From Okamejei kenojei (Eukaryota), in NCBI GenBank assembly GCA_035221665.1, contig CM069147.1, positions 12,772,001 through 12,836,000 on the forward strand: DNA of 64,000 nt. Direction: 5' to 3'. The position numbers were made by a program, and so were the translations under genes. The notes beneath the pieces are model-generated. The model did not search any database, was not told the origin of the DNA, and saw only the letters and a list, made by a program, of their open reading frames with translations. Shown here piece by piece: positions 3,674 through 64,000 of the stretch. Every line of letters starts with the position of its first letter. Position 1 is the first letter of the stretch.

Positions 3674-4324
3674 GTAGAAACGTGTTAATTGCTGGATGTA
3701 TTATGTAACTTTCAGCATTGTCCTCAGTGATAGATTTGAATGCATGCTGTTTATAAACGCCGTGAGGTTTTTTTATATAATGACCTAAGGTAGCTCGGAT
3801 TATGTAACAATGCAACAAAACGGTCTTGGTTCAACGGATCGTTCTCTTATTTTGGGGACATTTTCCAGGGACTGCGTGTGTTTTATCCCTAAATGCGTGC
3901 GGGCCACAGTTGCTTGCGCCGCGCTGTTCCTCGGAACGAATTGATCTCGCTATTGATGTAAACAAACCTCACCTTAAAAAAAATCCAAGGCGTTTGCAGC
4001 GGTTAAAATATGACGGGATTTTTTTTGTTATTGTGGCTATTTTATGTTTCTGTCAATGTTCTTCCCTCTCTGGGCACTGGTGCCTGTTTCTCGCCATCAT
4101 AATTCGCATTATTGGCTGTTAATATTGGAGCCATATTTAATGATATTACGTGTTAGAAAGAATTTGAATGGTTGCGCTTAGATTTGGTTTTAAAAATAGG
4201 CAGATTATAAATCTAATGTTTTGGATTTGTGTATTATTTTCACATTCATTGGACGCCTGCCTGGTTACGTGTGTTTAGAGAGATGCAGGTGCCACAAACT
4301 CTTCATTTTTTTCCCCCCTCGCAG

Positions 4325-4547
4325 TTCGATGCTGAATTCCGAAGATTTGCTCTAAAACGTTCCAACGTCGGGGGTTTTCAGGAATTTTACCAGCTGATTC
4401 AAGCCGTCCATCAGATCCCGTACGTGGACGTATTGTTGGGATATACCGACATCCACGGGGACTTGCTGCCCATCAACAACGATGACAATTATCACAAAGC
4501 GGTCTCCTCTGCCAACCCTTTACTGAGAGTCATCATTCAGAGACGGG
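4325..4547 (+). CDS. PARD6A: Par-6 coding exon 2 (PB1 domain, [10 protein letters not shown]...[11 protein letters not shown]...IIQRR)
   Basis: Polypyrimidine tract plus gcag| acceptor ending at 4324. Canonical Par-6 PB1 sequence. Phase-1 donor g|gtaagt at 4548. Confidence 0.95.
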
Positions 4548-5539
4548 GTAAGTCGAACGCAGGAGCTACCTTCCATTGGCGCCTGAATTATATCCCATTT
4601 AAAAAATAATAATAATCTCGAGATGCATAACTGGTAATGTCTGATGGTGCCTTGGCATTTCATGTGACATTATAAACTGTGTATAAATAGTCGCGGCTCT
4701 TTAAGTGCTCAACATAGTGCGCTTGTCGTTTTAAATGTAGGAGGTATCTTAACACCGACACCTCTGTGCACTGAGCATAGGTTTCCGCTATGCAAGGAAT
4801 TCGGTTAATCTTAACTTTTTTCTAAAGAACCGGAGGGGGTGGGGGTGGTGGTGTCAGGAGAAAAGTCGTGGCGTTGTAAGTCACTTACAATGAGATCTAT
4901 TTTTAGCAAAATATTTCTCCATTATTCATGTTCCCTTGTTTTATCTATTTTTAGCACAAACAAGGCACATTGACTCATCGCTATTTGTGCCAGAAATGGG
5001 TGCGTTAAATAGCTATGAATCGCAGATTAAGCAAATAAACGTGGTCTTGGTTCGTATATGGGTTAAATTTTATTTTTATAGTGCTTACTTAAAAAACAAA
5101 ACCTCATGCCACAACACCCATTACGATTGTCCAGATACAAACAATTGCATTTTCATTCCACATGTAAATCATTAGTCTTCATAAAGCCTACGTTTTCAAA
5201 CTGAAGTTAACAAACTGGAGGTAAAGTTAGATTGGAATTGCGGGGGATTACCTCAGATATGGAATGGAGCAAAAACCTATTTGAAACTGTATTGCAGAAA
5301 TATTCTTGCCATTTTGCAATATAATCCTAATATTTTCCACTCTTCCCTTTCCATGGGTAGATGAAAATGTTCAGTCTCCACATAAATCAACGTTGTCGTG
5401 GGCAGCTAACTTGAAACAATTAAAACAACCTCCTAATCAGTTCCTTTCCTCCCACAACCCTAACTGTATTATCACTAATTGGAGAACACAGCTGAGGGAG
5501 TCTCAGCTGCTAATTGCTTTGCCTATATGGTCTGCAAAT

Positions 5540-5632
5540 GATAGACACAAAATGCTGGAGTAACTCAGCGGGACAGGCAGCATCTCTGGAGAGAAGGAAT
5601 GGGTGATGTATCAGGTCGAGACCCTTTTTCAG
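5540..5632 (-). mobile_element. Penelope-derived terminal repeat
   Basis: gatagacacaaaatgctggagtaactcagcgggacaggcagcatctctggag family match. Confidence 0.65.
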
Positions 5633-12587: not shown

Positions 12588-13075
12588 TAGATAGAAATGC
12601 TGGAGAAACTCAGCGGGTGAGGCAGCATCTATGGAGCGAAGGAAAAGGTGAAGTTTTGGGTCGAGACCTTTCTTCAGACTGATGTGGGGGTGGGAAGAAG
12701 AAAGGAAGAGACAGAGACGGTGGGCGCTGGAGGATCTGGGGAGGGAGAAAGCAAGGACAACCTGAAATTGGAGAAGTCAATGTTCATACCGCTGGGGTGT
12801 AAACTACCCAAGCGAAATATGAGGTGCTGCTCCTCCAATTTACATTAGGACTCACTCTGGCCATGGAGCAGGCCCAGGACAGAAAGGTCTGATTCTGATT
12901 GGAAGGGAGAAGTTGAAGTGCTGAGCCACCGGGAGATCAGGTTGGTTATTGCGAACTGAGCGAAGGTGTTGGGCGAAGCGATCACCAATGTGGAGCAGCT
13001 GACACCTAGAGCAGCGGGTGCAGGTGAACCTCTGCTGCACCAGGAAAGGCTGCTTAGGTCCTTGGATGGTCGGGG
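12588..13075 (-). mobile_element. Penelope-like element 3' fragment (GIY-YIG endonuclease remnant plus terminal repeat)
   Basis: CSRCQLLHIG/DRFAQHLRSVRNNQPDLPVAQHFN resembles the PLE endonuclease C-terminus. It is followed by the hammerhead-type repeat at 12588-12680. Confidence 0.8.
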
Positions 13076-13082
13076 TGGGATC

Positions 13083-14396
13083 TGTCATCGACAAATCGAC
13101 AACGGTGGATGTTGTCTATATGGATTTCAGTAAGGCCTTTGACAAGGTTCCCCATGGAAGGTTGGTTAAGAAGGTTCAATCTTTGGGTGTTAATGGCGGA
13201 GTAGCAAGATGGATTCAACAGTGGCTGAATGGGAGATGTCAGAGAGTAATGGTGGATGGCTGTTTGTCAGGTTGGAAGCCGGTGACCAGTGGGGTGCCTC
13301 AGGGATCTGTGTTGGGTCCACTGTTGTTTGTCCTATACATCAATGATCTGGATGATGGGGTGGAAAATTGGATAAGTAAGTATGCAGATGATACTAAGAT
13401 AGGTGGTGTTGTGGATAATGAAGTAGATTTTCAAAGTCTACAGAGAGATTTGGGCCATTTGGAAAAGTGGACTGAAAGATGGCAGATGGAGTTTAATGCT
13501 GTTAAGTGTGAAGTGCTACATCTTGGCAGGACAAATCAAAATAGGACGTACATGGTAAATGGTAGGGAATTGAGGAATGCTGTGGAACAGAGGGATCTAG
13601 GAATAACTGCATTGTTCCCTGAAGGTGGAATCACATGTAGTTAGGGTGGTAAAGAAAGCCTTTGGTGTGCTGGCCTTTATAAATCAGAGCATTGAATATA
13701 GGAGTAGGGAAGTAATGTTAAAAATTGTACAAGGCATTGGTAAGACCAATTCTGGAGTATGGTGTACAATTTTGGTCGCCTAATTATAGGAAGGATGTCA
13801 ACAAAATAGAGAGAGTACAGAGAAGATTTACTAGAATGTTGCCAGGGTTGCAGCAACTATGTTACAGAGAAAGGTTGAACAAGTTAGGTCTTTATTCTTT
13901 GGAGCGCAGAAGGTTAAGGGGGGACTTGATTGAGGTCTTTAAAATGATGAAAGGGATAGACAGAGTTGACGTGGATAAGTTTTTCCCATTGAGGGTAGGG
14001 AAGATTCAAACAAGGGGGGACTTGATTGAGGTCTTTAAAATGATGAAAGGGATAGAGTTGACGTGGATACGTTTTTCCCATTGAGGGTAGGGAAGATTCA
14101 AACAAGAGGGCATGACATGAGAATTAAGGGACAGAAGTTTAGGGGTAACGTGAGGGGGAACTTCTTTACTCAGAGGGTGGTGGCTGTGTGGAATGAGCTT
14201 CCAGCAGAAGTGGTGGAGGCAGGATCGATTTTAACATTTAAAAGTAAAGTGAATAGGTATATGGACGTGAAGGGAATGGAGGGGTATGGTCTGAGTGCAG
14301 GTAGATGGGACTAGGGGAAAACAAATAGTCGGCACGGACTGGAAGGGCCGAGAGAGCCTGTTTCCGTGCTGTAATTGTTATATGGTTATATGGTTA
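13083..14396 (+). mobile_element. 5'-truncated CR1 LINE (RT C-terminal part, 3' UTR, tail)
   Basis: VYMDFSKAFDKVPH, SGVPQGSVLGP and YADD RT motifs. Frameshift near 13607. Tandem tail ttatatgg-ttatatgg-tt. Confidence 0.93.
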
Positions 14397-17451: not shown

Positions 17452-17706
17452 GCAGTGCTGGAGTAACACGATGGGTCGGGCAGCATTTCTGGAGATAAAG
17501 GATAGGTGAAGTTTCTGGTTCAAACCCTTCTTCAGACTTATTATTCACTAGGTGGCTCTTGACAGCCTAACTGCTAAAATCAAAAGTCTGAAGAAGAGTC
17601 CCGACCCAAAACGTCACCCATTCCTTTTCTTCAGAATGCGGTCTGACCCGCTGAGCTACTCCAGCTTTTTGTCGATCTTTGGTTTAAAGCAGCATCTGCA
17701 GTTCCT
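17452..17706. mobile_element. Penelope-derived inverted repeat pair
   Basis: Minus copy at 17452-17540 and plus copy at 17585-17706, each with a ctgaagaa...aaac core. Confidence 0.7.
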
Positions 17707-18654
17707 CCCCACTCTTTTGCTATGTACTACCCAACTGGAATTACTGAATGAAAATCTAGATATATTCTTTGTAATTAGATTTGAAAGACGCATGTAGTAG
17801 CTGCCATACACTTTATCTTTAATGTTGTAGTTTTCAAACTGCTGATTCATTCTGAAGATTTCTGGTTTACTCCCAAAGTAATCCACCTACAGCTAGATGG
17901 TAGAAATTTGCTGGGCAGCTAATAATGAACCACAGGCTGAGCATTTTCAATAGCATTTGGTGTTTGGATAATGCATAGTAATTTGATCCATCCATCAAAA
18001 TATTTTTTTTGCAGAGTGAACGATATTGGAAGCCATTATCACTATTTCCTACAGGTTTGGATGTTTTGAATGCTCTCAGGGGCTCGGTTATTAGTCTAAA
18101 GTGCAAGCGTTAGACTAGACTAATTTAATAATCCAGACTCTGTGTAAAGCATGACTTCAGCAGCGAGGTTGTCAAGTCACCAAATGAATAATAAGAGCTC
18201 TGGGCCCAGACAAGAAAGGTTGTATATTTCATTCAGGCCATCAGCACTGGAAGTCTTGTGGATTGTTATTCAGATTTGAATGTACATAACCATAATGAAG
18301 TCCCTCATGGATTTGTTACTGATGTAATCCTAGCACTTTGCTGTATACAAATGTTTAAAGCTCCACTAGAGTTGGCGAGGAATTAAAAACCAAATGCATG
18401 AATCAAAGATGACGTTGGCAAGAATGGTGGTCAGAATGGGTTTCGAAGAGGATTTGGGGGCTTGGGGAGAACTTCAAGGTTTTGAAGGTGAAGCTGGCTG
18501 TTGTGGGCAAAAAGGTAGCTAGTTGTGGGTAGAGTAGTTAAGTTACTGTGCTGGCAGCTGGAATCTGGACCTTACCCCAGAGACACTGGTTTGATTTTCA
18601 AGATGGATGTTGCAGAATGTTTAAGTAATTCAAAAATCTTTAACTAACTATGAA

Positions 18655-18770: not shown

Positions 18771-19546
18771 CAAACCCCACTGCCTCTCTAATGTACATCA
18801 GGAAATAATCTATATATCTTTACCCAGTTTGGCCTGTGTGACTAACTAGGATCTATGCAAGGGTACTGCATGCAAGAGACAACTTGTGTGGAGGGAGCAA
18901 TTGAATTGACCCTGGTCATTGCACTATTGTGACTGACAAAATGCATGCAGGCAGTCCAAATTAAATGTGGGTGGCTAGAGCTTTGAGGCAGCAGCCTTAA
19001 AACATTTGCAATAAATCTGGGATTTACATTTTTGATCTTGTTACTATGAAATGATCACAGCATAAAGATTTTATTGCTGTATTTAGAATTCAAAGAGGTA
19101 CTTTGATATTGGTGCAAGTGACATAAAATATGTTAACGACAAATACTAGAACTTTATCAAATGTCATAGACATGGAGTGCTTGTTAAGCTTTTACTTAAT
19201 GCAATTAAAATGTTGCTACTTAACATAGTAAAAGAGGATAATGTGCAGGTGTAATATTTTCAACTCTTGGTTAGTTTAATATCAGGACATGATTTAATTG
19301 CCATTTTATGAAAGGCTTCATTTTTATACTGCCTACACACTGCTCAGCATGTATGTGATGTATCTATTACAATTGTAAATGATCTTTCAACTTAATGACA
19401 ATTCAATTAGATTGTCTTTTTTTTTTCTAGCTAGTATAGTATTTTTTTTTTTCTAGCTAGTATAGTATTGTGATGCTTTTTCCTGAGTACTGACTTGAGT
19501 TATAAAAGCACCCTGACTCAACATGCAGTATCCAGCTTCATCTGGT

Positions 19547-19689
19547 CGCCTTCTTCTTGCGTATGGCGTGCACAGCCTAAAGTTGTAGGACAACTTGTTC
19601 AATTTTGATCTTATTTGATTGTGCACATCAGGCTGATTGCATTCGTCGAAACGGGGCAGACCACGTGAAGGTTGCAATCTCCCACCCCA
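19547..19689 (-). mobile_element. Short non-autonomous retroposon headed by an HDV-like ribozyme
   Basis: 13-bp TSD agcttcatctggt (19534-19546) / agcttcacctggt (19690-19702). 3' tail caagaagaag on the minus strand. No tRNA-like head seen. Confidence 0.8.
19635..19688 (-). ncRNA. HDV-like (CPEB3-type) self-cleaving ribozyme motif with minimal P4
   Basis: Minus-strand RNA GGGGUGG-GA-GAUUGCA-ACC-UUCACGU-GGU-CUGCCCC-GU-UUCGA-C-GAA-UGCAAUC fits P1, P2, P3, L3 and J4/2 of the nested double pseudoknot. Catalytic-position C at 19645. Confidence 0.8.
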
Positions 19690-20511
19690 AGCTTCACCTG
19701 GTGTACAGCTGTTTGTTTACCAGCTCTGAAGTATCTGCCTGGTGTCTTTTCGATGCTGGCTCCAACTACTGAATGGTCTGGTTAATGGGTAAAGACCAGG
19801 AGTGCAGCCCAGTGCCAGATTTCTGGCAGACAAGGTGCATTGAAATATGTGATCTGGAAAAAATGCTCTTGAACTCTTGTTGGTAGGACACCTTGCAGAT
19901 ATTTGAAATTATTTTTCGGTGCATGTGATATTTGGGTCGAAGTTTAAATCCCGTGCTGCAATGTACTATTCTAAAAAAAATTGCTTCCATTTAAAATGTT
20001 TATTGCAGACAGACCAAAATAACAAAATGTGGAAGATCCTTTCTTTATTGGTTTAATAGAACTGTTAGAATATAAATCTACAATACATAAGCATCCCTTC
20101 TATTACATTAATATTGTTTCCATATTCAGCAACTGAGGCCATACAAGTTGTTGAGAAGATAACAATCAAAGTTTAGGAGCTGATCTGGCTGGATTGAAGC
20201 TGTGTGAAAGAATTTAGGTGCTTGAATCTAGTTCCAGCAAAGACAATGGTGAAAATTTGACAGCAGATGAGTTAAGGCACATGCAGATTGAGTTGCCTTT
20301 CTTGAACGTGAATACCTCGCATTCCTCTGGTGCTCTGCTTCTGGACAGTTGCCATAACAAGTATTACAATTTGTTATTTGTGGATCCAATCTGGGTGACT
20401 TTATATTGCCCCAATTGAACCCCCACCTACACTTGACTGAAGTTCCTTTTTGTCTCTTTCCCTAACCTTTTGTCACACCCACACCTCAATATACAACACC
20501 GCATTGCACAA

Positions 20512-43681: not shown

Positions 43682-43878
43682 TCACAAAGTGCTGGAGTAA
43701 CTCAGCTGGTCAGGCAGCATTCTGGAGAACATGGATAGGTGACGTTTCAGGGCGGGATCCTTCTTCAGATCCTAAATGTCACCTATCCATGTTTTCCAGA
43801 GATGCTGCTTGACCTACTAAGTTACTCTGGCACTTTGTGTCCATTGTCTATTAACCAGCATCTGCCGTTCTTTGTTTC
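43682..43878. mobile_element. Penelope-derived fold-back repeat
   Basis: cacaaagtgctggagtaactcag... and ...gttactctggcactttgtg form inverted arms of about 60 bp. Confidence 0.7.
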
Positions 43879-57926: not shown

Positions 57927-58385
57927 TAACTGCTCCAAATGATATTCCCATTGTCCTGTACACTGGATTGCAATTCAGTCTTTCTACTGAATGGATAGCA
58001 CACAACAACAAAAAAGCTATTCACTGTACCTAGGTACACATGCAAATAAACTAAGACTGAAGTGCTGACTGGCACAGTGAAGACCACTTATTATTTCTGT
58101 GGCATTAATTTTTTTTTATTCTGCACAGCCATGAACTGAAACCACAATCATTCTGCATGATCTCCCACCTTCATTCAATGAAACTCCTGTGTTACTCATT
58201 GACATGCTTACGTAACCTGATCTGGTTGTTTTTTGCACTATAAAAAGAGCATTGTACTCGCTGCCAGATATGTTGAAATGTTTACACCTAACTATTTCTA
58301 ACTTTTGAGTGTATCACTCTTAGTAATCCATTGGAGTATTAGCCTATAAAATAACACCTATTGGTCTATGGATGGTAGTTGTGCG

Positions 58386-59313
58386 GGAAGGAACTGCAGA
58401 TGCTGGTTTATAGGAAATATAGATACAAAATGCTGGAGTAACTCATCGGATAAGGCAGCACCACTGGAGAGGAGGAATGGGTGATGTTTCTGGTCGAGAC
58501 CCTTCTTCAGAATCTGAAGTCTGCAAGTCTTTCAGAGTCTAGAGCAGGGGTGGGGAACCTTTTCATGTTGGAAGGCCGCATTAAGTTGGCTGTAATCTAA
58601 TAAGGCCGCATCCAAGAAACTTCAATTAGATATAATTCAAAATGTACGTTATTTGGTAAAAATCTAACTTCAAGAAAATGAAAAAAAATTGTTAATTCTA
58701 AAGTTAATTAACCTTTTAATGACTTTGTGACTGCTTTCTGTGGGAAAGCATTTGAATATTTGGTTGCAACATGGAGGTACGCAGTTTCAGCTGATCTTCT
58801 AGATGGGTATCTGTCATTTGTGACCTTAAGGGTGTCTTGATTTGCGTTGGGTAGGAGAATGTAGATTCGCAGCAATAAGTGGTTGAAAAGCAAGAAAGCA
58901 TTTTTTGTGCATGTCAAAATTAACGTACATTCTAGAGAGTCGCATTAGAAATAAATCGTGAGCATAACAGGTGTTAAAATAGCCATCATGTTTGAATTGT
59001 GGCCGTCAGTCGGGGCGGATTAGTTAGTTGAATCTTCTTTTACTCTTTGGTATTTTAAATATGTTCATTTTAAGATAAAAATTAAAATAATAAAAGACGA
59101 ACAAAACATATAATAAAAATAAAAGGATTTGTTCTACAAAATTTGGATTCATTCAAAAGGCCACACTTAATGGCCTAGAAGGCCCCTTGAGGCCGCAGGT
59201 TCCCCACCTCTGGTCTAGAGTCTGAAGAAGAGTCTCAACCCAAAATGTCAGCCATTCCTTCTATTCGGGGATGCTGCCTGTCCTACTGAATTACTCCAGA
59301 ATTTTGTGTCTAT
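58386..59313. mobile_element. Penelope-derived fold-back split by the hAT insertion
   Basis: Minus arm at 58386-58512 and plus arm at 59220-59313 flank the hAT element. Confidence 0.7.
58545..59212 (-). mobile_element. hAT (Charlie/Buster-type) deletion derivative retaining the transposase C-terminus
   Basis: 16-bp TIR caggggtggggaacct / cagaggtggggaacct. Perfect 8-bp TSD gtctagag (58537-58544, 59213-59220). ORF 58716-58901 (FSTTYCCESTFS...RSQMTDTHLEDQLKL...KQSQSH) resembles the hAT dimerisation-domain tail. Confidence 0.9.
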
Positions 59314-61556
59314 GGATAATAGTTGCTGTGTGACTACTTTCACTCCTTTTTTAAGGGACTAACTGCGGGTTGGAGTACTGCAATAATTTTTGATATTCAA
59401 CATGGAAAATATCGAATTTGGGTAATGAGTCAGTACCAACTATAAACCACCCATTCCCAACCCTTGCCTGTTCAGCCCCATTTTTATCCACTTCCCCTGC
59501 CCTCATGCTTGATGTGGTGGAATATAATGGTAACTCCAAACACCAACTCCCAGACCATACAAGGTCGTGGTGTGTTGGATCTGAGGATCTTTTACCATCT
59601 TAAATACCAGAGGATGGGGCTTGTTTGAATGCAGTCGCTATGGGGAAGATGCACTGCTGCCCGAACAGAGGGATAACACCACAGCTTGATAATGGAGCCC
59701 AATCAGTTAGGATCAAATCGGGACGGACAATTACAGTACCATGCAAGATTTGTTCCAATGTAAAATAGAGATTCCAGTTATATAGATGTTTTCATCATGG
59801 TGCAAATAAATGAGGAACTGAAAGAGGGATAAAGCCTGATGGGTATCTTTGTGCTTGAATGATATTTGATTTTTTTTTAAACCTGAACAAATTAAGTCTC
59901 AACTGACCAAGGAACAAAAAATTATTGAAATGATACATTTTTATGCAGCATTAAATTTTCAATGCTGAAAGAAAAGTGTTTAATTTTGCACATGTGTATA
60001 TTCCAGATTAACAACAGCACAACACTTCCACTCAAGGGTCTCAATTTTCAACCACCCTGTTAGTAATTTTGTAATTCAAGAAAATTCTTTATTCTTCCAA
60101 TGATAGGAGGGGAAAAAAAACGTATTGTGGTTCCCTTTAACTAGATGTTTTAATATGAAATACATGGACGTTTTTCTGTCCTGCAGTGTAGTCAGTCAGA
60201 AGGGCCCTGATGTGATGACTGAATAAAAGCTGCTTCTAAAGAGATTCATTGCGATTTAAATCGTCTCTTGCAGTGCTGTCAATAAATAATATCCTATTAT
60301 GTCATCAATGAACTGCAGGATGGGAAGAGGTCACTTTGTGCATTTCAAGTACTAAATCTGATGTAACATGAATTTTAATTTTTTACTATGATGTTGAAAA
60401 GCTACTTTATGAAATGTTACTAATCGCATCTGAGAGTAATGTTAAATCTAAATACATGCTTCAGTCAGCTGAGCAGTTCAAATTCTGGAATTTACAGCAG
60501 CAGTAGACAGTTTAATGATGTGAACAGAAATCAAATGACATTTATCTGCTTCTCAAATTGTCAGCTATTGCTTTAGCAAATCAGACCATAAAATAATTCA
60601 ACCATTTTCTTTAGTGGTCTGGCAGAGTAGTAGTTGCAACAATTATCTGACACTCAAATTAACAACAACTTTAACAACAACTTCAACCATTTCAAGATTT
60701 TTTTGGCCGAAGGATCTGGAACATAAAGGGTGGTTTTGCATCGGGGGATGGACTAGCTGTCAGGCACCAGATGAAGTGTAATTGATTGTTAGATGAGGTA
60801 CTGAAGAGGGAGCAGCGACTGTAGCGATCCTAAATACAGTATATTTCTTAAATGCCTCAATATGCTTTAAGTGTGCAATCTAAATTTTGTTTGCTTGCAT
60901 TAGGGAGCTCTTCCTCTAATTAAAGTAGTTCTATGGCTGTGTGTAGTTAGGGGTAGTTGGAAGAGGGGTGAGAAGGAAGAGAATGTAACTGGACCTAAAA
61001 CTTTTGTTGCCTATGTGTCCTTTATACAAATGTTTTCTATGAAGATGTGACCATTCCTAGGTATTTTCCAGTGTATTTTGGATGGTGGTGTATCCTGCAA
61101 TATTGTATTCATTTTACCGAGAACAAATATTTCTGACTCTCCTGGAATCTAAATTGAACATAGCAGAAAGATTTGGAAAATTAATCTGTCTTTTGCTCCC
61201 TCGGTATTACAATTCTCTATGGTTTTACCAAGATAAGTGATTTTCCCCTTTTGATCATTCAATATATCTAAACTCGATAAAATGAACTTATTGCAATGCC
61301 AAATTTAAACTTCACTCTAAGCTAATACTTTAAGTTCTTAATATAAACCCTACAACCAAATCTCTGCCACATTCTGGCTAGGTATCGGCTGGATTTTAAG
61401 GAGAGTTCTAACACTAGCTAAATCTGGTGGAAATATTTATTCTCTCTGATAAGTGAGATAAGTGCTGAATGCTTTTGATTTGACTTGATTTTGATTTAAA
61501 TGAAAAGTTCAAATGTTGCTTCAGAAATCTAACCAAACATTTGCATCTTTCTGCAG

Positions 61557-62404
61557 CTGAAGGTGACTGTGGGGCGTTTGGCACAAATTCTCTCCTACGC
61601 AAGAAGAAAGGTCTTCATGTGCTACGGCCTGTCTATCACAAGTCAAAGCCTCACATTTTGATTGGAATGCCCCAGGATTTCCGACAGATCTCTTCCATTA
61701 TTGATGTGGACATCCTTCCAGAAACTCACCGCAGAGTCCGTCTTCACAAACACGGCTCTGACAAACCACTTGGATTCTACATTCGCGATGGGGTGAGTGT
61801 ACGGGTGGCCCCTCAAGGGGTGGAAAAGGTTCCAGGTATCTTCATCTCCAGGCTTGTCCGAGGTGGCTTGGCAGAGAGCACTGGCCTGCTTGCGGTGAAC
61901 GATGAAATACTAGAGGTCAACGGGATTGATGTCGCCGGGAAGTCACTGGACCAAGTGACTGACATGATGGTAGCAAACAGTCACAATCTGATCATTACCG
62001 TGAAACCAGCAAATCAACGCAATAATGTCATTCGCAGCAGCAGGGCCTCTGGCAGTTCTGGTGTTTCCACGGACAGCAGTCCAAGCCAGCACAATGTCAT
62101 AGCTACTTCGCACTATGCCAACCACTACAGTGCAGCCGAAGGAGAGAGTGAAGATGAAGGCGATCTAATAATTGAAAACGACATGCCATCATACATTCCA
62201 AAAACAATGTTCCCAAATTATGTGAATGGAGATCTTACAAAAAAGCTGCAGCATAACCTCTCCCTAAACAGCCCACTGTTAGACAGCAAAGAAAACAAAT
62301 ATAAAGGGTCCTTAAACTCTTTGAACACACACAGTGACAGTCCTGGCAAAATAAGTTCAAGCCATGGAAACATGCGAGAAGATGGAACAATGATAACACT
62401 ATAG
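61557..62404 (+). CDS. PARD6A: Par-6 coding exon 3 (semi-CRIB, PDZ domain, C-terminal tail ending EDGTMITL)
   Basis: Acceptor tctttctgcag| ends at 61556. Phase matches exon 2 (G+CT = Ala). [17 protein letters not shown] semi-CRIB and [19 protein letters not shown]. Spliced CDS 63+223+848 = 1134 nt, 377 aa plus stop. Confidence 0.95.
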
Positions 62405-63629
62405 ACAATTTTCCTTTATAATCACTTTTATATAAAATTTCCAAGTCCTTCGTGGTTAAGGAGGTTGGAATCTAATCAATTTTCACAAAGATATTTGATG
62501 CCAATGGTGAATCTGGAGGTTAGAAGTATTTATGAAAGCAAAAGAAAAATCGTAATCGCTTGTATGAAGGATCTTTGACGAAGAATTGTGCGTATTTGCA
62601 TCATGTTTCATTTTCAATGTCAATGTCCAAGATTCTGTTTAGAAGCCAACCTCTTGAACTGGTTCCTGTTTAATAAAACTGGAATGCATCACATTATGGA
62701 GCAGCATTTGAACAGATGTTACCTGCAATTGGAGACAAATGTATCTTGTGAAATTGCAATACAAGAGTTTTTAAAAATGCAGGTTCACTATCTTCATATC
62801 ATGGAACCTGTACATCGCATCAGTGACCTCATTGTTACAAATGTAAACTTACAAACTACTTATTCAGCATTATTTGCATTTATCCAATTTGAGAGCAGGT
62901 GTCCCCTTTTTCCTATGGAAAACAATTAAAAAACTGATTAAACGTGGACAGGATTTCAGTGGAGCATAAACCTTTCGTGAAGTAGCTGCTCTGCTCCCTA
63001 AAAGGATATTTGAGAGCTTTGCAATTTTAAACTTGTGGATTTCCTGCTGTAAGGCAGATTCTTCCTTGGTGGTATGAGGGTGTCCTGTATTGTATTTTTT
63101 TAACCTACCTGTATCTTAAATTTTAAGAAACTCTGCTGGCTTCAGTACCTTTTAAAACCATGCTGCTTGACATATTCTTTCTGTATTGCACACATTTTGT
63201 ACTTTTCTCTCCTTAAACAGAGCACTGTTCGTCACTGAGATAAGTAACCATCAATAATACTCCAACGTCTGTGTACATTAGATGACAAAGAGCACTTTTT
63301 GGCATACTTTCAGAAAAAGGTCAGTGTAGTTACTTCCAAGGTTAATTTATCTACAGTGTACCATAAATTAATTAATAGATTAAAATTGGTCAAAAGCTTC
63401 TTATTTTTAATCTCTTTCATTAAATGGAAATTCTCACTGACAAACCTGGGGCACACAAGGCGGCATTGTCATCTAAAGAAGCTTTACAATGTCTGTAATT
63501 GGGTTTAAATTATATGGAAACACTTGGGAATGAATTTGAAGACATTTCACTTTTTATCCACATAAATATAGAGACAATTGTTGTTGAGGTTTTGGGGTAG
63601 TCTAAACTTGACAAACAGGTTGGTAATTA

Positions 63630-63832
63630 GAAGATAGGCACAAAGTGCTGGAGTAACTCAACAGGTCAGGCAGCATCTCTGGAGGAAAAAGGATGTATAA
63701 TGTTTCGAATCCGCAGAAGGGTCCCAACCAGAAACGTCACCCGCCCTTTTTCTCCAGAGATGCTGCCTGATCCGCTGAGTTATTCCAGCACTTTGTGTCT
63801 ATCTTTGGTATAAACCAGCATTTGCAGTTCTT
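63630..63832. mobile_element. Penelope-derived fold-back repeat downstream of the Par-6 CDS
   Basis: aagataggcacaaagtgctggagtaactca... and ...tgagttattccagcactttgtgtctatctt form inverted arms. Confidence 0.75.
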
Positions 63833-64000
63833 ATCTGCACAGGTTGGTAGTTTAGTATCGGCACATTCATTTCCAGCAGAACTGGATGCACTTTGTTAGA
63901 GTATAATTGTGCAACTTTACTAATAATTTAAAAATAGTAGAAATTAAGTATGAGCTCCTTGTATAGACCCTGTAGGTGATCTTGGTAACCTGGAGCCTTT

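Follow-up and report, generated by a model that had tools for sequence, protein, structure and literature searches.

The window, by which we mean the whole 64-kb stretch of Okamejei kenojei DNA analysed here, carries a short insert between two exons of a Par-6-type gene. A preliminary description of this DNA had reported a 143-bp insert (19547-19689) bracketed by 13-bp direct repeats with one mismatch (19534-19546 and 19690-19702) and lying antisense to Par-6, and re-inspection bears out both the coordinates and the orientation. Since a PB1 exon and a PDZ exon, both on the plus strand, flank the insert, it can reasonably be placed in an intron of a Par-6-type gene. The features are given below in order of position; V-E denotes the LINE to which both ends of the insert are traced in this study, and TSD a target-site duplication.

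4217..4609, plus strand: Par-6-type exon lying upstream of the insert, read as a stop-to-stop frame that encodes a PB1 domain
19534..19546, no strand: TSD, downstream copy, 13 bp
19547..19549, minus strand: three extra bases between the tail and the TSD
19550..19588, minus strand: V-E 3' end including the short 3' UTR, 42 of 44 positions identical to the V-E copy L281
19550-19558, minus strand: (AAG)3 tail
19577-19588, minus strand: last three codons of the V-E ORF and its stop
19589..19611, minus strand: 23-nt linker, absent from V-E at the corresponding place
19612..19634, minus strand: start of the V-E 5' UTR, element positions 55-77, the 3' part of which pairs with the element 3' end (predicted hairpin)
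19635..19688, minus strand: predicted 54-nt HDV-like ribozyme fold of the minimal kind, lacking P4 and derived from the 5' terminus of V-E, the parent LINE
19682-19688 / 19653-19659, minus strand: ribozyme P1
19673-19679 / 19635-19641, minus strand: ribozyme P2
19670-19672 / 19660-19662, minus strand: ribozyme P3
19663-19669, minus strand: ribozyme L3
19646-19652, minus strand: ribozyme J1/4 and short loop
19642-19645, minus strand: ribozyme J4/2, with 19645 as the putative catalytic C
19689, minus strand: one additional T separating the TSD from G1 and not encoded by the element (position -1 differs among copies, with T enriched)
19690..19702, no strand: TSD, upstream copy, 13 bp
61484..62404, plus strand: Par-6-type exon lying downstream of the insert, read as a stop-to-stop frame that encodes a PDZ domain

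Read on the minus strand, 19688-19635 runs P1(7)-J1/2(2)-P2(7)-P3(3)-L3(7)-P3'-P1'-GU-short loop-CGAA-P2', and 17 of its 17 pairs are formed. The P1, P2, P3, L3, GU linker and C-GAA of the preliminary description all match this re-parsed strand, as does its placement of the start of the fold one base (T 19689) inside the TSD, G1 being 19688. All seven pairs of P1 form, with a G1-Y pair at the predicted cleavage site, while L3 has the conserved U...CG and J4/2 the putative catalytic C followed by purines. In P1.1, for which HDV-like ribozymes have two G-C pairs, a single C-G pair and a U.U are possible, as in the printed CPEB3 ribozyme sequence. The G1-C pair of the window copy had been called unusual, and indeed G1-C36 occurs in only 7 of 66 family copies and G1.U in 47; the HDV-like descriptor, in its published form, has G1-Y, hence permits G1-C, and gives J4/2 as C-R-R-A. 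When a family-agnostic HDV descriptor was run on the window, on unrelated LINE loci and on three first-order Markov copies of the window, it had a single match in the 64 kb, the insert itself, none in 100 kb of the unrelated LINE loci, and 0, 1 and 0 matches in the Markov copies. The proposed comparison with the Rfam CPEB3 and HDV models succeeded in part. The HDV model RF02682 aligns exactly to 19635-19688, at 15.1 bits and E 3.7 against a gathering score of 44 that nothing in the window reaches, whereas the CPEB3 model is silent, with no match at E<=10 in the window or in the family heads described below. The P4 stem is missing both from the short element, hereafter the mini, and from its parent V-E, and a genome search for a mini or parent with a long P4 gave 63 pattern matches, all of them mini variants. 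With ViennaRNA, P1 and P3 form the best nested fold of the consensus 54-mer; in the full-length mini, G2-U5 pairs with 56-59 in competition with P1, and a long 3' hairpin forms as well.

The mini is a multicopy family with a common 5' start, as had been predicted. A first-look BLAST of its own 2.76-Gb genome gave 2,161 candidates, of which 40 were scored. Exact matches to a 23-mer of the head numbered 5,323 and those to a 16-mer of the tail 11,169 (reversed controls, 0); the exact tail word was present in 16 of 30 head-selected copies, and capture-recapture gives a rough copy number of ~21,000. The copies examined comprised 30 best BLAST matches, 30 selected by the head and 40 selected by the tail and lacking the exact head word, with three segmental duplicates (L036, L050, L094) and one LINE tail (L084) left out of the copy set. 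These 40 tail matches were 39 minis and the short LINE tail L084, and although the copies had been chosen for missing the exact head word, 36 of 38 reach position 4 or less. Position 1 is G in 58 of 60 copies. The preceding base differs from copy to copy (T 29, A 13, C 9 and G 9 in 60 copies), which argues that the extra T at 19689 is not part of the element; T is nevertheless enriched relative to positions -2 to -8 (p = 5e-5), and this may reflect target choice or microhomology. TSDs of 9-15 bp, with a mode of 11-12 bp, were found in 75 of 94 copies, and in 57 of those 75 they end within one base of G1. The element start therefore coincides with the predicted HDV cleavage site across the family, and not merely in the window.

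Two subfamilies can be told apart by J4/2 (CGAA or CUAA) and a 2-nt indel, with mean non-CpG divergences of 5.2% and 3.9%; in subfamily B, as in V-E, a U directly follows the putative catalytic C. All 17 pairs, the catalytic C and L3 are intact in 30 of 66 sampled copies, 28 of the 66 having been picked by the exact head word. Purifying selection on the ribozyme part was not detected (4.4% non-CpG changes, against 3.7% in the middle of the element): it decays as fast as the middle, so individual copies show no sign of selection, and the window copy itself is probably inert. Four metagenome matches to the family were only 19-27 nt long and lay inside bacterial-looking coding DNA, and were dismissed as chance. 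A literature search over titles and the starts of abstracts found no published description of the mini family.

Where the ends of the mini come from was settled by the LINEs of the same genome. Two partners were considered and dropped: the top PF14529 family (L101-L130), presumably I/Nimb-like, is unconnected to the mini head, and V-A, which has a common core and a similar tail, was abandoned once V-E had been found. A compact LINE with a similar tail (L152) came to light through a search by endonuclease family and an inspection of 20 diverse matches; its endonuclease had 156 matches among the 150 scored of 561 candidates. Inspection of 30 and a further 20 of these loci yielded the families V-A, V-B, V-C1, V-C2 and V-D, all of which begin at the G1 of a predicted HDV-like fold particular to the family and end in (AAG)n; the head of the mini was not found in any of them among the inspected loci. 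The parent itself emerged from both ends. A pattern of the mini tail preceded by other letters had 655 matches in the genome, and in about 38 of the first 100 listed one and the same ORF end runs, by eye, into the last 38 nt of the mini. At the 5' side, L292 and L302 read from the head through a 5' UTR and an ATG into an endonuclease, and L292 runs on into sequence common to the RT-bearing 3' copies of V-E.

V-E is about 3,030 nt long, with a single ORF for endonuclease and RT, and contributes the first 77 and the last 39 bases of the mini; the window copy is identical to it at 67 of 76 positions of the head (positions 2-77, compared with the V-E head in L303) and, as listed, almost throughout the 3' end. 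The (AAG)n tail is common to both, and the P4-less fold is already present in V-E. Its fragments tile an intact 1043-aa APE and RT protein from residue 50 to the end, with RNase H absent, while every V-E copy inspected is broken, none having an intact ORF. A V-E-specific 5' word has 88 genome matches, and the 30 loci inspected were 8 LINE copies and 22 minis, the latter of three other types (9, 7 and 6 loci), each with a different deletion junction. In the window copy, the linker at 19589-19611 includes, by eye, a short direct duplication of the head end together with an inverted duplication of the tail start, and would represent such a junction. Both ends from one LINE, a deleted ORF, a TSD and a simple-repeat tail are the marks of a bipartite LINE derivative, and all are present. 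We regard it as quite probable, with a good margin of confidence, that the insert derives from the Vingi-type LINE V-E as a short internally deleted element (SIDE). The preliminary description had seen a novel kind of SINE; an internal-deletion derivative of a LINE belongs to a class already described.

Mobilisation by a partner LINE had also been suggested, and the presence of V-E in the same genome agrees with it; the assignment of that partner to the RTE clade was not supported, the architecture being that of Vingi. RTE elements are likewise single-ORF APE and RT elements without RNase H, form bipartite derivatives and bear HDV-like ribozymes, and these traits would speak for an RTE-clade partner and for the mini as an RTE-type bipartite derivative. 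No named RTE element stands among the homologues listed, and the relatives of the V families speak against this reading. Among the best 92 relatives of V-B none is listed with RNase H, and proteins of about 1000 aa on contigs of 3-3.6 kb make up most of them; of the next five (P0093-P0097), none of them named Ingi, four have RNase H and one of these additionally a PHD finger, which fits a sister of Ingi that lacks RNase H. V-E has a CCHC-type knuckle at its C-terminus and a QLNVEG motif at the start of its endonuclease, both of which we take to be Vingi/Ingi traits. A 2026 review describes Vingi as compact, single-ORF and APE-type, sister to Ingi and without RNase H (PMC13708176), and V-E agrees with this: it is compact, its one ORF has APE and RT, and RNase H is absent. 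In addition, the supplement of PMC5786205 prints the 5' ends of four named Vingi elements, which have, by eye, the same fold and register, and Vingi-2_Gav, at 3128 nt, is close to V-E in length. That V-E is a Vingi is thus a well-supported inference from architecture, motifs and printed 5' ends; V-E is likely not an RTE, and we would give the RTE reading very little credence.

The covariation that had been proposed as a check on P1, P2 and P3 is present among the heads of the different families. In five heads (V-E type, V-A, V-B, V-C1 and V-C2), which are single copies selected for intactness, 85 of 85 stem cells are paired and 11 of 17 pairs have changed on both sides. When strands are swapped between families only 9-14 of the 17 positions pair, the exception being V-C1 with V-C2, the stems of which are identical. 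The V-E head is represented here by the mini3 copy L294, the direct LINE copies missing positions 1-7 or 1-8, and V-D was omitted as a misfit to the fixed spacing. The 3' strand of P2 was picked by best pairing, so that P1 and P3 form the position-fixed part; on their own they show 50 of 50 cells paired and 5 of 10 pairs altered on both sides. A strict descriptor passed 16 of 27 loci and failed all four of V-A, where J4/2 is CAGA and is permitted by the published C-R-R-A, and all three of V-D. The putative catalytic C is invariant across the families, followed by G, U, A or C; V-B lacks a G after P1, which makes P1.1 doubtful in that family. Aligned to RF02682, the heads of V-C1 and V-C2 score 32 bits (E 0.015-0.02). 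None of the heads reached the Rfam gathering score, and no ribozyme match was returned at E<=10 for the heads of mini, V-E, V-A, V-B or V-D. The most likely reading of these patterns is that an HDV-like ribozyme is a feature of the Vingi clade.

The same results dispose of a more conventional account, in which the insert would be an ordinary tRNA-derived SINE transcribed by Pol III, its ribozyme-like pairing would be fortuitous, and GTTTCGAC, a B-box-like word at element positions 37-44, would be a B box. A length of 138 nt is that of a SINE. ARAGORN, however, finds 0 tRNA genes, the stems covary across families, and the head comes from a protein-coding LINE, where it forms the 5' end; this last point effectively refutes the Pol III reading, to which we attach almost no probability.

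The copies of V-E have a further peculiarity. In 5 of 20 tail-selected copies the head is inverted, running from position 41-82 back to 4-10, and stands directly before a distant 3' fragment; in none of the 20 does a forward head lie within 4 kb, and internal sequence is not inverted in any of them. Inverted heads were also found in 6 of 8 head-selected LINE copies, one of them of the ordinary kind with adjacent breakpoints, and a TSD surrounds the whole inverted structure in 4 of 9 tested. Of 15 joints in four public sequencing runs, 4 change strand, each of them with one side at head positions 9-25; some may represent the same loci. The inverted heads resemble L1 twin priming and differ from it in that the second primer lands just behind the ribozyme. 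One explanation, which we hold to be about evenly balanced between right and wrong, is that the Vingi protein keeps the RNA's 5' end at the target; if true, it would explain why Vingi keeps yielding two-ended minis. No published description of Vingi head inversions was found among literature titles and the starts of abstracts.

A role for the head other than cutting has to be weighed at this point. The V-E origin could be correct and the precise 5' end could still be due chiefly to a Pol II promoter that lies inside the element and overlaps the head, with a fold that protects the RNA or binds protein and cuts slowly or not at all. The 77-nt head of L1Tc, Pr77, the nearest case that has been studied, is reported to be promoter and ribozyme at once, the P4 of V-E is the shortest among the families here, the full-length mini has a competing pairing, and the inverted heads suggest that the RNA 5' end is held by protein. 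Yet every parsed family retains the catalytic C, L3 and G1-Y despite turnover of the stems, the start falls exactly at the predicted cleavage position in six families, and HDV-like ribozymes without P4 have already been described. We consider the promoter explanation unlikely, though clearly less so than the RTE and Pol III readings, and retain a self-cleaving head as the preferred one.

The genomic copies establish the two-ended V-E origin, the start at G1, the (AAG)n end, the 9-15 bp TSDs and the conserved fold, and from these we infer the following course of events. A copy would be transcribed, either from an internal promoter or by read-through of transcription that starts at a promoter of the host or of a neighbour. 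The ribozyme would cut 5' of G1 and remain attached to the RNA, giving it a 5' end that is defined and protected. The V-E endonuclease/RT would then bind the 3' tail in trans, and probably the head too, and insertion would follow by target-primed reverse transcription. Individual genomic copies, the antisense intronic one in the window included, would thereafter decay neutrally.

Several known systems share parts of this picture. The internal-deletion families of Vingi-1_EE in hedgehog (Kojima et al. 2011, as cited in PMC5786205) likewise retain both Vingi ends only, with several products per parent and mobilisation in trans; what is added here is that the head is recognised as a predicted HDV-like fold. 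The passage of PMC5786205 that lists 5' ribozymes names six LINE clades (R1, R2, R4, RTE, Ingi, LOA) and leaves Vingi unnamed. In trypanosomes, NARTc with L1Tc and RIME with ingi are similar in that the first ~77 nt and the 3' end are common with an Ingi-group LINE (PMC3383444, PMC3185411, PMC4035085), and the HDV-like ribozyme of NARTc is reported to cut at +1, with activity demonstrated (PMC3185411, PMC3383444). The mini differs from NARTc and RIME in its vertebrate genome, its parent without RNase H, its P4-less fold, its about 21,000 copies and its (AAG)n tail. The R2 SIDEs of Drosophila also join a ribozyme head to a LINE 3' end and are described as released from a co-transcript by self-cleavage (PMC3414825); R2 is specific for rDNA and uses a restriction-like endonuclease, whereas the mini family is dispersed, APE-driven and far more numerous. 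The minimal HDV-like drz-Mtgn/theta ribozymes resemble the fold in the window in lacking P4 and in their length of about 54 nt. They come from metagenomes and phages, the origin and function of the first examples being stated there as open, and the fold described here is by comparison the head of a eukaryotic LINE (PMC10879173). A review also notes that some SINEs use HDV-like ribozymes (PMC6765202). The SIDE class is therefore known; relative to this literature, the apparent novelties are that Vingi carries predicted ribozymes, that one on a vertebrate LINE is P4-less and that ribozyme heads occur inverted in LINE copies.

These observations bear on both the host and the application of such elements. 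A single vertebrate genome would harbor ~21,000 copies of a predicted 54-nt P4-less ribozyme, and sense copies in introns could cut the host pre-mRNA, which predicts an antisense bias. Vingi has been used for RNA-only gene insertion, and in the account of the 2026 review the native 5' UTR was kept, with no reason given in that account (PMC13708176). A self-cleaving, protein-bound head would be a testable explanation for this retained 5' UTR.

The relationship with the mammalian CPEB3 ribozyme, which the preliminary description had raised as a possibility, holds in a form different from the one proposed. The window ribozyme and CPEB3 have in common the 7+2+7+3 register, L3, the GU after P1 and CGAA. 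The stems, however, differ, P3 is A-C-C rather than G-C-G, and P4 is missing; compared with the elephant CPEB3 ribozyme printed in the supplement of PMC8233481, 26 of 49 positions are identical by eye. The mini is moreover a mobile multicopy family, here in a Par-6-type gene, whereas the CPEB3 ribozyme is a single conserved intronic copy. By these letters the window ribozyme is a distant CPEB3 cousin only. Another Vingi lineage comes much closer. The 5' end of the gharial Vingi-2_Gav (supplement of PMC5786205) matches CPEB3 at 38 of 40 positions between 2 and 41 and at 14 of the last 14, that is, at 52 of 54 overall outside the P4 tip in the mammalian comparison, and numbering from base 1 of the element equals CPEB3 numbering from the cleavage site. 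In the alligator SINE2-1_AMi, the portion that derives from Vingi is identical to CPEB3 at 57 of 66 positions, by eye, with the entire 7-bp P4 stem among them, and differs in L4, where natural variation of the CPEB3 ribozyme is reported to be concentrated. These comparisons were made by eye on machine-read supplement text rather than with an alignment program. Other papers drawn on are PMC6326823, PMC10919898, PMC8256844 and PMC3747384.

Since the stems turn over freely among the heads of the present genome, stem identity argues for descent rather than convergence. The heads of Vingi-4_Crp, Vingi-2_SPur and Vingi-1_BF are similar, so the sequence would be old in Vingi and the direction from Vingi to CPEB3 is the simpler one; the human genome is also reported to retain a Vingi fossil (PMC5753468). 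On the strength of these printed sequences, we think it very probable that the mammalian CPEB3 ribozyme is the domesticated 5' end of an ancient insertion of another Vingi lineage. A search of titles and the starts of abstracts found no publication linking Vingi to the CPEB3 ribozyme, and Ruminski 2011, Webb 2009, Webb and Luptak 2011, Kojima 2011, Repbase reports, patents or bioRxiv supplements may already note the link; whether the whole proposition, with HDV-like ribozymes as the standard Vingi 5' end and CPEB3 domesticated from Vingi, is both true and not already in print could go either way with equal ease. Several mammalian lineages are reported to have kept the CPEB3 ribozyme unaltered over about 159 My, and the ribozyme has been linked to memory; it was stated in 2021 to be absent outside mammals, and its outgroup is described as missing (PMC8233481). 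If the descent is true, the Vingi-2_Gav head would supply this missing outgroup and a concrete origin for the CPEB3 ribozyme, and the element in the window would be a recent, minimal cousin with ~21,000 copies that shows the same predicted head in action.

The ~3-kb Vingi-type LINE V-E, parent of the abundant, internally deleted mini-element to which the window's 143-bp insert belongs, is also the source of three other mini-elements, which are rarer than the main one and have different deletion junctions (among loci L285-L314). All three retain the U5-A32 pair of V-E, whereas the abundant family has U5.G32. In the 3' half of the abundant mini-element a long hairpin is predicted (window 19565-19629, minus strand), in which positions 60-69 would pair with positions 114-123; in subfamily A all 10 of these pairs are perfect. 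A 6-bp hairpin is predicted to be nested inside the long one.

The head of V-E, that is, its 5' end with the predicted HDV-like ribozyme, is inverted and fused to a distant 3' fragment in LINE copies L268, L270, L278, L279 and L282, and the same structure is found in copies L297, L298, L299, L303, L305 and L312. This head also takes part in strand-switch joints in public sequencing runs.

Besides V-E, the genome holds five Vingi-type LINE families, each with its own HDV-like head (loci L157-L165, L166-L173, L177, L185 and L198-L201). The V-B head is without the usual G after P1, and that of V-D has a long P4 and longer J1/2 and J4/2 joins. An 11-mer common to the 3' end of V-D (L198) and mini-element positions 8-18 is probably a chance match. 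Copies L185, L188, L190, L194, L195 and L197 of V-C2 have upstream flanks in common, and thus a single insertion seems to have been amplified within a larger repeat or segmental duplication.

The abundant, young LINE family at L101-L130, which we take to be I/Nimb-like, has one open frame of 1276 aa (L112) and no relation to the ribozyme-headed mini-element. The window carries further repeats, including an older interspersed one of 100-200 bp, present in more than 12 copies that are 73-88% alike.

Other repeats in the window (older interspersed repeat: part of the set)
226-354, older interspersed repeat
2341-2448, older interspersed repeat
5527-5632, older interspersed repeat
13003-14084, plus strand, CR1-type RT fragments
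near 13916-14110, ~100-bp tandem duplication among these fragments
17585-17712, older interspersed repeat
19419-19469, short tandem duplication (~24 bp), 65 bp from the mini-element
43683-43872, older interspersed repeat
58380-58518, older interspersed repeat
63621-63841, older interspersed repeat

Outside the skate, in sequences from the supplements to PMC5786205 and PMC8233481, the mammalian CPEB3 ribozyme and the 5' end of the crocodilian Vingi-2_Gav agree by eye at 52 of 54 positions, the P4 tip excluded. By the same comparison, the Vingi-derived middle of the alligator SINE2-1_AMi is identical to the CPEB3 ribozyme at 57 of 66 positions, P4 stem included; its L3, however, is altered at both ends and its P1 has a gap. 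Judged by its sequence, the ribozyme part of SINE2-1_AMi looks as if it had been inactivated, sitting behind a tRNA head.
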